The notes under the pieces were generated by a model. That model had not been told where the DNA came from. It did not search any database and was given only the letters and a program-made list of their open reading frames with translations. From the sequence record MF327003: DNA of 64,000 nucleotides. One strand, written 5' to 3'. The position numbers and the translations under genes are program-made. Source of the stretch: Shigella phage Sf14. Below, in pieces: positions 14,319-15,178 of the stretch (positions are counted from its first letter, which is position 1; each line of letters begins with the position of its first letter).

Positions 14319-14388
14319 CAGAAGACCAATTACAGCAAACAAACTTTTAAATTTCGCGCATAGAAATCCAAAAACGATTTGGTCTGGT
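14319..14388 (+). ncRNA. structured repeat element copy 1 (CAGAAGACC..TACAGCAAACA .. GGTCTGGT)
   Basis: 7-bp closing stem AGACCAA/TTGGTCT. Confidence 0.4.
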
Positions 14389-14398
14389 CATTAAGAAT

Positions 14399-14475
14399 TG
14401 CGGGTATAGAGAAAGGGTGTCTCACATGTCTCATTAGCATGTTATCGGTAGGTTCGACTCCTACACCCGCCTCCA
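14399..14475 (+). tRNA. tRNA-Met/fMet/Ile2 class (CAT), 1-72 mismatch
   Basis: T-arm GTAGG-TTCGACT-CCTAC, anticodon loop CTCATTA, CCA encoded. Confidence 0.6.
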
Positions 14476-14481
14476 AATTTA

Positions 14482-14548
14482 CAGAAGGCCGTTTACAGCA
14501 AACACTTAAAATTTTTTATAGGCAAAAAAATGAAAAGATACGGTCTGG
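14482..14548 (+). ncRNA. structured repeat element copy 2
   Basis: closing stem AGGCCGT/ACGGTCT (G-U wobble), conserved TTTACAGCAAACA. Confidence 0.4.
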
Positions 14549-14560
14549 TAATACTAACAT

Positions 14561-14637
14561 GGTTAGGAAGCACATAAGGCATGTGCGGTCGGCTGTTAAC
14601 CGAATGGTACAGGGTTCGAATCCCTGACTAACCGCCA
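14561..14637 (+). tRNA. tRNA-Asn (GTT)
   Basis: D-arm GCAC/GTGC, anticodon loop CTGTTAA, T-arm CAGGG-TTCGAAT-CCCTG, CCA. Confidence 0.7.
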
Positions 14638-14706
14638 AGATTTGGGAGAGAAGCTATTGCTCACCGATTTGTAAGGTGCAAGTCCTTAGCCTGAATAGAA
14701 TAAAAT

Positions 14707-14794
14707 GCGTCGTTATCCCGTAGATGGAAGCGGTGGTGACTGTAAATCACTTGTCATTATGACTCGGTAGGTTCGACTCCTTCACGGCGCACCA
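14707..14794 (+). tRNA. tRNA-Tyr (GTA), type II
   Basis: acceptor GCGTCGT/ACGGCGC, anticodon loop CTGTAAA, long variable arm GTCAT/ATGAC. Confidence 0.7.
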
Positions 14795-14800
14795 AATAAA

Positions 14801-14877
14801 GGTTATGTAGTTTAACTGGTCAAAATACCTCCCTGTCACGGAGGATGATGAGGGTTCGAATCCCTTCGTAACCGCCA
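14801..14877 (+). tRNA. tRNA-Asp (GTC)
   Basis: anticodon stem CCTCC/GGAGG loop CTGTCAC, CCA encoded. Confidence 0.75.
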
Positions 14878-14930
14878 AATTATAATAAGTATTTCAAAAT
14901 GATGTTTGAGAGGGCTTTTTAGCCCCTCCC

Positions 14931-14958
14931 TTAAAGAGTTCTTACGAGTATTCTTTAA
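14931..14958 (+). ncRNA. hairpin motif copy A with conserved loop GTTCTTACGAG
   Basis: stem TTAAAGA/TCTTTAA around 11-mer loop core. Confidence 0.45.
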
Positions 14959-14963
14959 AGGAG

Positions 14964-15038
14964 CAGAAGACCAAATACAGCAAGCAATTTTACTATTTCA
15001 AGCCAATTTAATTTGAAAAATTTAAAACTTGGTCTGGT
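14964..15038 (+). ncRNA. structured repeat element copy 3
   Basis: closing stem AGACCAA/TTGGTCT. Confidence 0.4.
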
Positions 15039-15051
15039 TCCAACAATTTTA

Positions 15052-15178
15052 CAGAAGACCGTTTACAGCAAACAATAAACAATCTATTTCTCTTATAAAG
15101 AAAAGGCGAAGGTTCAATTCCTTCACACGTTACGGCGTGTTGGTGTAATGGAAGCACTTAAGATAAATACGGTCTGGT
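15052..15178 (+). ncRNA. structured repeat element copy 4, contains tRNA T-arm-like GAAGG-TTCAATT-CCTTC
   Basis: closing stem AGACCGT/ACGGTCT; internal T-arm mimic and ACACG..CGTGT hairpin. Confidence 0.4.

Follow-up and report, generated by a model that had tools for sequence, protein, structure and literature searches.

Ro60-Y RNA particles are a classic RNA-surveillance system. In more than 250 bacteria and phages, Y RNA genes adjoin the Ro60 gene and share its strand (PMC4201824); the Ro60 protein of phage phiLo binds two neighboring Y-like RNAs (PMC12135203). The large DUF2828/DUF7788 branch of Ro60-like proteins has so far been without a known RNA partner. One such protein, gp130 of phage Bas63, was described as Ro60-like, encoded upstream of transfer RNAs (tRNAs), and able to counter the Ppl defense; its authors guessed that some of the tRNA genes are Y RNAs, and no RNA was identified (PMC11482910). 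Here, a 64,000-nucleotide (nt) stretch of Shigella phage Sf14 (record MF327003; hereafter the window) was analyzed, in which four related structured elements are interspersed in a tRNA cluster directly downstream of a gene for an ortholog of gp130. The four elements are probably small non-coding RNAs that serve as Y-RNA-like partners of this divergent Ro60-like protein.

All four copies lie on the + strand. Copy 1 (14323-14385, 63 nt), between tRNA-Glu and tRNA-Met, contains a terminal stem (14323-14329 paired with 14379-14385), the motif UUACAGCAA (14330-14338), and an inner hairpin with a 7-nt loop. Copy 2 (14486-14546, 61 nt), between tRNA-Met and tRNA-Asn, has the stem AGGCCGU/ACGGUCU, in which the G-U wobble described in the original prediction is present as a single pair. 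Copy 3 (14968-15035, 68 nt) has the stem AGACCAA/UUGGUCU and the motif AUACAGCAAGCAA, and copy 4 (15056-15175, 120 nt) has a tRNA-like domain framed by the same stem and motif. The shared module, found in 4/4 copies, consists of a 7-bp terminal stem, unpaired UUACAGCAA immediately 3′ of the 5′ strand, and a G that follows the 3′ strand. In minimum free energy (MFE) folds of all four copies the terminal stem is kept, the motif is unpaired, and a small hairpin forms in the interior, which in copies 1-3 is a simple AU-rich hairpin.

Within the 64 kb, AGRCCNNNTACAGCAA occurs without mismatch only at 14323, 14486, 14968, and 15056, and GGTCTGGT occurs at 14381, 14542, 15031, and 15171, where it closes each copy, and at one unrelated minus-strand site. 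A strict descriptor, which requires a stem of 7 or more pairs that begins 9 nt ahead of ACAGCA, a G as the second stem nucleotide, and a G following the 3′ strand, returned exactly the four copies on the + strand of the window. A covariance model, R1, which was built from 33 short elements and run with filters off, scored copy 3 at 53.8, copy 2 at 48.9, copy 1 at 47.9, and copy 4 at 25.2 bits. The four same-strand copies placed here by the original prediction were thus recovered by exact matches, the strict descriptor, and R1. The prediction also gave a closing helix of AGACC plus 3 variable nt with compensatory changes throughout the triplet; the pairing stands, and the helix is 7 bp (AGRCC plus 2 nt) rather than 8. 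Since the third nucleotide of the variable triplet has no partner in any of the four copies, variation between copies is confined to two positions, and both change in a compensatory way (AA/UU versus GU/AC). The conserved 5′ sequence was retained and redefined as the single-stranded motif UUACAGCAA, with a fixed 9 nt from the stem start to ACAGCAA. A proposed partial fifth copy at 16936-16950 was dropped: it has no ACAGCAA motif and no R1 match at E ≤ 10, and it sits in a different stable long hairpin, unrelated to the family, in the tRNA-Thr to tRNA-Val spacer (16897-16991, +; -30.3 kcal/mol, z = -3.3).

One weak R1 match elsewhere in the window (52093-52157, +; 19.8 bits, E = 0.016) is probably due to chance. 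It has CUACAGCAA and a 7-bp closure, is without the conserved G-C pair, overlaps two TTGACA boxes, and lies in the gap between a minus-strand open reading frame (ORF; 49368-52067) and a plus-strand ORF (52327-52767). Intrinsic terminators or attenuators were also considered; a scan found none at the elements, whose stems close loops of 50-110 nt with no T run after them.

For comparison across phages, 80 viral loci encoding DUF2828-type relatives were fetched (loci are designated by L numbers), 65 of which are distant, with 38-45% protein identity. In these 65 loci, TACAGCAA was found 80 times on the gene strand versus 8 times on the other strand, and the strict descriptor matched 60 times on the gene strand versus twice on the other, with 1-5 matches in shuffles. 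R1 at E ≤ 1 gave 59 matches in 44 loci, all on the gene strand and none on the other. Among the 49 matches at E < 0.01, 38 start or end no more than 500 nt from a gene end, and none of the 49 falls within the gene. Elements are found on either side of the gene, many at 13-420 nt from its ends. When R1 was run on 633 kb of unrelated viral control DNA, which took in T5-like and T4-like tRNA clusters as well as loci picked for containing the 19-nt motif, one weak match was obtained (E = 0.26). The linkage of element and gene is tight and near-exclusive. A search for conserved protein neighbors of the gene in the distant loci found none (an RNA ligase once, a phosphoesterase once, the rest unrelated), and the RNA element is the sole constant neighbor of the gene in these loci. 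At 52-62% protein identity, the synteny of the window (DUF5681, DUF2828, tRNA cluster) is kept and the elements have new stems (GGACUGU/ACAGUCC, AGAAUC/GAUUCU, AGGCUG/CAGCCU). An exact-pattern scan of viral contigs with AGAAGRCCNNNTACAGCAA returned 94 loci, in which all multi-copy matches belong to Ounavirinae; single matches outside Ounavirinae have no closing strand and were set aside as chance.

Among 66 distinct elements, every cell but one is paired in stem pairs 1-7, and five positions show 3-5 pair types; these figures are partly circular because selection of the seed set required pairing; the non-circular support is the strand, shuffle, and control-DNA contrasts given above. Pair 2 is G-C in 65 of the 66, and sliding the partner columns lowered pairing to 30-45%. 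Entirely different stems are found between phages, such as UUAGGUUCC/GGAACCUGG, UAGGAUGA/UCAUCCUG, and UGGGACGAC/GUCGUCCCG. Positions 8-9, in most cases UU, are for the most part single-stranded and count as part of the motif, and the seed alignment shows no variation in ACAGCA or in the G that follows the 3′ strand. Motif variants in phages fit nCnGCAA (ACAGCAA, GCAGCAA, UCAGCAA, ACUGCAA, UCUGCAA), and the distant short elements are 49-70 nt long. The AGCAA core is repeated two or three times in the unpaired interior of many elements, for example as ACAGCAA...CAAGCAA...UAGCAA (short elements of L122, L126, L127, L136, L137, and L145), and copy 3 carries the AGCAA-core repeat ACAGCAAGCAA at 14976-14986; these repeats hint at a multi-site single-strand recognition signal.

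Terminal inverted repeats, and multiple copies in an indel-prone region that in Sf16, although not in the window, also carries an HNH endonuclease gene, are what would be expected if the elements acted at the level of DNA, as recombination scars, miniature inverted-repeat mobile elements, or targets of homing endonucleases, which are frequent in such tRNA clusters. This explanation is highly improbable and already close to refuted, since polarity relative to the gene is strict (59:0), the two arms change in concert, with an asymmetric motif on one strand remaining invariant, and the position relative to one gene family is kept in unrelated phage backbones. The original prediction had named recombination scars without conserved pairing as the outcome that would count against it, and the covariation, polarity, and retained motif point the other way. 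Its claim of selection on RNA structure rather than on a DNA site is borne out by stems that are paired yet divergent in the 66 elements and by matches confined to one strand in distant loci, and the covariation that it proposed to look for in homologous elements is present in pairs 1-7.

Phage tRNA clusters are processed from long precursors. The cluster in the window (14,150-18,760) comprises 25 ARAGORN calls, all on the + strand, and the elements are separated by 8-12 nt from the 3′ end of a preceding tRNA or the 5′ end of a following one, so their maturation by tRNA-processing enzymes is plausible. Their position between tRNA genes, at this spacing, would equally suit punctuation or processing signals of the tRNA operon that guide cleavage by RNase E, RNase III, or RNase P or stabilize the precursor and have no life after processing. 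We regard this as quite unlikely. Most tRNA junctions in the window have no element, the module is absent from the T4-like and T5-like tRNA clusters of the control DNA, and an invariant 9-nt motif across very distant phages together with a tRNA-like payload exceeds what a cleavage signal needs. Moreover, in about 20 of the loci where the module adjoins the DUF2828 gene, no tRNA gene lies within 6 kb; what the module is linked to is therefore the protein gene rather than the tRNAs.

The gene in question (12570-13985, +; 471 amino acids) encodes a DUF2828 helical domain and a DUF7788 von Willebrand factor A (vWA) domain and lies directly upstream of the tRNA cluster. In Pfam its product matches DUF2828 and DUF7788 only, with no TROVE match, and a phmmer search against PDB sequences found neither Ro60 nor any other solved structure that matches in sequence. 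An AlphaFold2 model based on 40 homologs (predicted local distance difference test score, pLDDT, 88.7) matches Ro60 over its whole length, and the top eight Foldseek matches in the PDB are all Ro60/TROVE. As modeled, the protein has the Ro60 fold, a HEAT-repeat ring with a vWA domain, and the MIDAS (metal ion-dependent adhesion site) residues are invariant. Its relatives in phages number in the thousands (2353 search matches); the DUF2828-type fold family also has members in protist giant viruses (Pithovirus, Marseillevirus, Mimiviridae) and beside phage proteins annotated as TROVE/Ro-like, and papers mention DUF2828 proteins in plants. The window protein is the proposed partner of the elements. 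Its ortholog Bas63 gp130 has 83% identity and the same synteny, and the Bas63 genome has the same four elements. Unlike the tRNA genes suspected by the authors of the Bas63 study, these are not annotated as tRNAs; they lie in spacers, partly under the small minus-strand ORFs bas63_0137/0138.

None of the four elements is annotated in any relative's record examined. Small hypothetical ORFs, often on the minus strand, are annotated over elements or adjacent spacers in L185 (Bas63; 20749-21023), L003 (2430-2555), L007 (2596-2772 and 3163-3420), L005 (3207-3427), and L002 (2636-2806), and are probably annotation artefacts on RNA genes.

The original prediction mentioned neither the adjoining Ro60-like gene nor the tRNA-like domain within copy 4. 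This domain (15087-15158, +) comprises an anticodon-like stem-loop (15087-15103), a T arm (15108-15124; GAAGGUUCAAUUCCUUC), a loop-capped acceptor-like hairpin (15125-15140), and a D-arm-like hairpin (15142-15158). The MFE fold of copy 4 has z = -1.8. The Rfam tRNA model (RF00005) matches 15058-15132 at 30.0 bits (gathering score 29) through the anticodon-like and T arms only, and ARAGORN called no tRNA at copy 4. An RNAalifold consensus of 16 distinct copy 4 orthologs retains the T arm, the D arm, and the capped hairpin, which has 7 bp, 3 of them with compensatory changes; compensatory variants of the capped hairpin include ACACG/CGUGU, ACUCG/CGAGU, and CCCUUC/GAAGGG. Copy 4 is not a tRNA cloverleaf, as the acceptor hairpin is closed by a loop, there are no free paired 5′ and 3′ acceptor ends, and the arm order is permuted. 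A permuted tRNA gene of the Cyanidioschyzon type was rejected because, as in YrlA, a loop caps the acceptor helix, a hairpin that is conserved and covaries, and because copies 1-3 have the same module without a tRNA part. The distant locus L119 has a 129-nt element built on this stem and motif module, inside which the YrlA model matches (E = 3e-6); the match runs through the T arm, capped acceptor, and D arm, with the Ro-binding (outer) helices of YrlA unmatched. A long element in L157 likewise has a partial tRNA match inside.

Among described RNAs, YrlA (RF02553) is like the window elements in several respects. It is encoded on the strand of an adjoining Ro60-fold gene, frequently in two or more copies (PMC4201824; PMC12135203), and the 5′ and 3′ ends are paired into a terminal stem; for copy 4 only, the likeness extends to the order of T arm, capped acceptor hairpin, and D arm (PMC4201824). 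The two differ in that the window protein belongs to the DUF2828/DUF7788 branch rather than to Pfam TROVE and the window RNAs are embedded in a tRNA operon. In one distant clade, a 200-250 nt conserved RNA-like region directly follows the short element (L132 7524-7765, L146 7471-7721, L126 2990-3222, and 10 loci like them); this region begins with AGGAUCG-GUACAGCAAAAAGUAC and contains the conserved blocks CUAUGAUAG, GUCGAAGUUUAGUAGAC, and AAGCCGAAGAC, and the arrangement resembles a short/long pair such as YrlB/YrlA.

Several observations weigh against a Y-RNA-like partnership with the Ro60-like protein. The window elements have neither the bulged conserved helix nor the CGAA motif by which Y RNAs canonically bind Ro60, and instead have a 7-bp helix and unpaired UUACAGCAA; the YrlA model gave no match on them at E ≤ 10, and the L119 match, at 38.2 bits, is below the gathering score of 69. 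Membership in YrlA thus fails on both the Ro-binding helix and the Rfam score, and the elements are not YrlA members. The simplest account is still a Ro60-like protein that has Y-like RNAs of a class of its own, with a payload logic common to YrlA and a protein-recognition module that is new, fitting a protein of a divergent branch. In thermodynamic z-score copies 1-3 do not stand out (-0.6 to +0.1), so stability was left out of the evidence, and the pairing figures carry the partial circularity already stated. There is no R1 match at E ≤ 1 in 21 of the 65 distant loci, in three of which (L117, L123, and L134) a longer element was found by the descriptor. Finally, plating on Ppl is restored by gp130 on its own, whether supplied on a plasmid or transferred into T7 (PMC11482910), so these RNAs are not needed for that activity.

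This last result, together with the tRNA mimicry of copy 4, would fit stable RNAs that work without the Ro60-like protein, either as tRNA-mimic or protein-sponge decoys against host nucleases or defenses or as cis-regulators of the neighboring mRNA, the linkage then reflecting a shared pathway or autoregulation. For a role in cis, the placement of many distant elements at 13-420 nt from gene ends resembles that of untranslated regions. In the window, however, the copies lie 338-1071 nt downstream of the gene on the same strand and are cut off from it by two promoter-like sites and two tRNAs. Genomes have several copies with differing payloads, elements occur on either side of the gene, and protein and RNA are the only pair kept together over very different phages, as in known Ro60/Y RNA pairs. 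Protein-independent RNAs are accordingly considered unlikely, and partnership with the Ro60-like protein remains the probable explanation.

Rfam was searched at permissive thresholds over the tRNA region and 10 related loci, and nothing reached the gathering score on the module, in agreement with the original prediction, which did not assign the elements to a described family. A resemblance to hairpin or hammerhead ribozymes was considered, and no ribozyme match was found in the Rfam scans. The only non-tRNA Rfam family that matched elements repeatedly was RF01414 (Dictyostelid Class I RNA), for which the nine matches listed (20.5-28.8 bits, individual E 0.09-5) all fall exactly on independently defined elements; no element reaches the gathering score of 41.5, none of the matches is significant by itself, and copy 1 has 23.4 bits. 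Class I RNAs are about 60 nt long, with a 6-bp terminal stem that shows compensatory changes and CCUUACAGCAA adjoining the 5′ strand (Kjellin et al., 2021, PMC7919456). An invariant 5′ G pairs with the C of a 3′ CUGU, and motif positions C6, C9, A10, and A11 are invariant; the RNAs were reported as unique to Dictyostelia, with eukaryotic genes that have a DUSE promoter element about 60 nt upstream, and the known direct binder is the RNA recognition motif protein Rnp1A/CIBP (PMC7919456). The uncharacterized protein DDB_G0281243 is one of four proteins pulled down with DdR-21. In a search of outgroups for Class I RNAs, the best candidate was ath_can_1 of Arabidopsis thaliana (covariance model score 40; GUUUUC-AUUACAGCAA...GAAAAC-UG), which its authors dismissed for want of a DUSE promoter (bioRxiv 10.1101/2020.04.05.026054).

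Phage copies 1-3 (61-68 nt) share with Class I RNAs a short terminal stem whose structure is kept and whose sequence is free, and a variable AU-rich interior. Nine of the 11 nt of CCUUACAGCAA are present as UUACAGCAA in the same place in the phage elements, with the same invariant positions; stem nucleotides take the place of the two leading C residues, and the spacing is shifted by 1 nt. The 5′ G and 3′ CUGU of Class I may have a counterpart in the phage G-C pair (65/66), followed by U/A and the invariant G, with the phage G at stem position 2. The phage elements differ in lying in a tRNA operon with sigma-70-like promoters and not DUSE. On these likenesses, we tentatively suggest that the phage elements and dictyostelid Class I RNAs might be the same kind of molecule, ligands of DUF2828-type Ro60 paralogs.

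In the mechanism we propose, small RNAs of about 61-120 nt would be transcribed together with the phage tRNA cluster and released, probably by tRNA-processing enzymes. Two sigma-70-like promoter matches from a consensus scan (14004-14032 and 14094-14123, +; 10/12 and 11/12 matches), just 5′ of the first tRNA, are the likely start of this tRNA/ncRNA (non-coding RNA) transcript. The module, with its 7-bp end helix, near-invariant G-C second pair, unpaired UUACAGCAA, and trailing G, would be the putative binding site for the Ro60-like ring protein, and the RNAs would take the role of Y RNAs as gates, scaffolds, or tethers. The variable interior would then be the payload: copies 1-3 carry a small AU-rich hairpin there, and copy 4 a circularly permuted tRNA-like domain, which could recruit tRNA-binding or RNA-decay enzymes. 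The complex would serve RNA surveillance or counter-defense in infection, a role that we favor by analogy with Ro60-Y RNA-PNPase particles (PMC12135203) and from the Bas63 phenotype.

Other features were noted in the same region. The spacer between copy 4 and tRNA-Lys (15181-15327, +) folds with a long closing helix (CUUUGCAGUGAC.../...GUUACUGCAAAG; MFE -45.9 kcal/mol, z = -4.1), none of 200 shuffles being equally stable, and may be another unannotated structured RNA. Two tRNA-like genes missed by ARAGORN lie at 14709-14789 and 16055-16129 (+). One is a tRNA-Tyr (GUA) with a long variable arm and 22.8 bits in Rfam, below the gathering score, which relatives annotate as tRNA-Tyr or pseudo-tRNA; the second is tRNA-Trp-like, with a CCA anticodon and an odd D region, and is annotated as tRNA-Trp in typing phage 15. 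In and after tRNA-Ile (15504-15744, +), weak matches to the permuted and alpha transfer-messenger RNA models (29.9 and 20.3 bits, E 0.0025-0.004) may be driven by the tRNA part alone. The tRNA-cluster region is 99.8% identical to that of Shigella phage Sf16 (Mooglevirus, Ounavirinae). Sf16 (L001) has an HNH homing-endonuclease gene (4906-5253) between tRNA-Arg(UCU) and tRNA-Ser(UGA), with none at 15888-16148 in the window, and the spacing from tRNA-Lys to tRNA-Met differs between the two.

The elements are concrete candidates for the Y RNAs that the Bas63 gp130 authors suspected among the tRNAs, and are of interest for phage RNA biology and anti-defense research. They also provide a covariance-model target for annotating phage genomes in stretches that are now blank or covered by spurious small ORFs. 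If the link to Class I RNAs is true, an abundant class of amoeba RNAs, called lineage-specific and without a mechanism, would turn out to be a counterpart of Y RNAs whose protein partner can be predicted, and the module would define a ribonucleoprotein common to viruses and eukaryotes.

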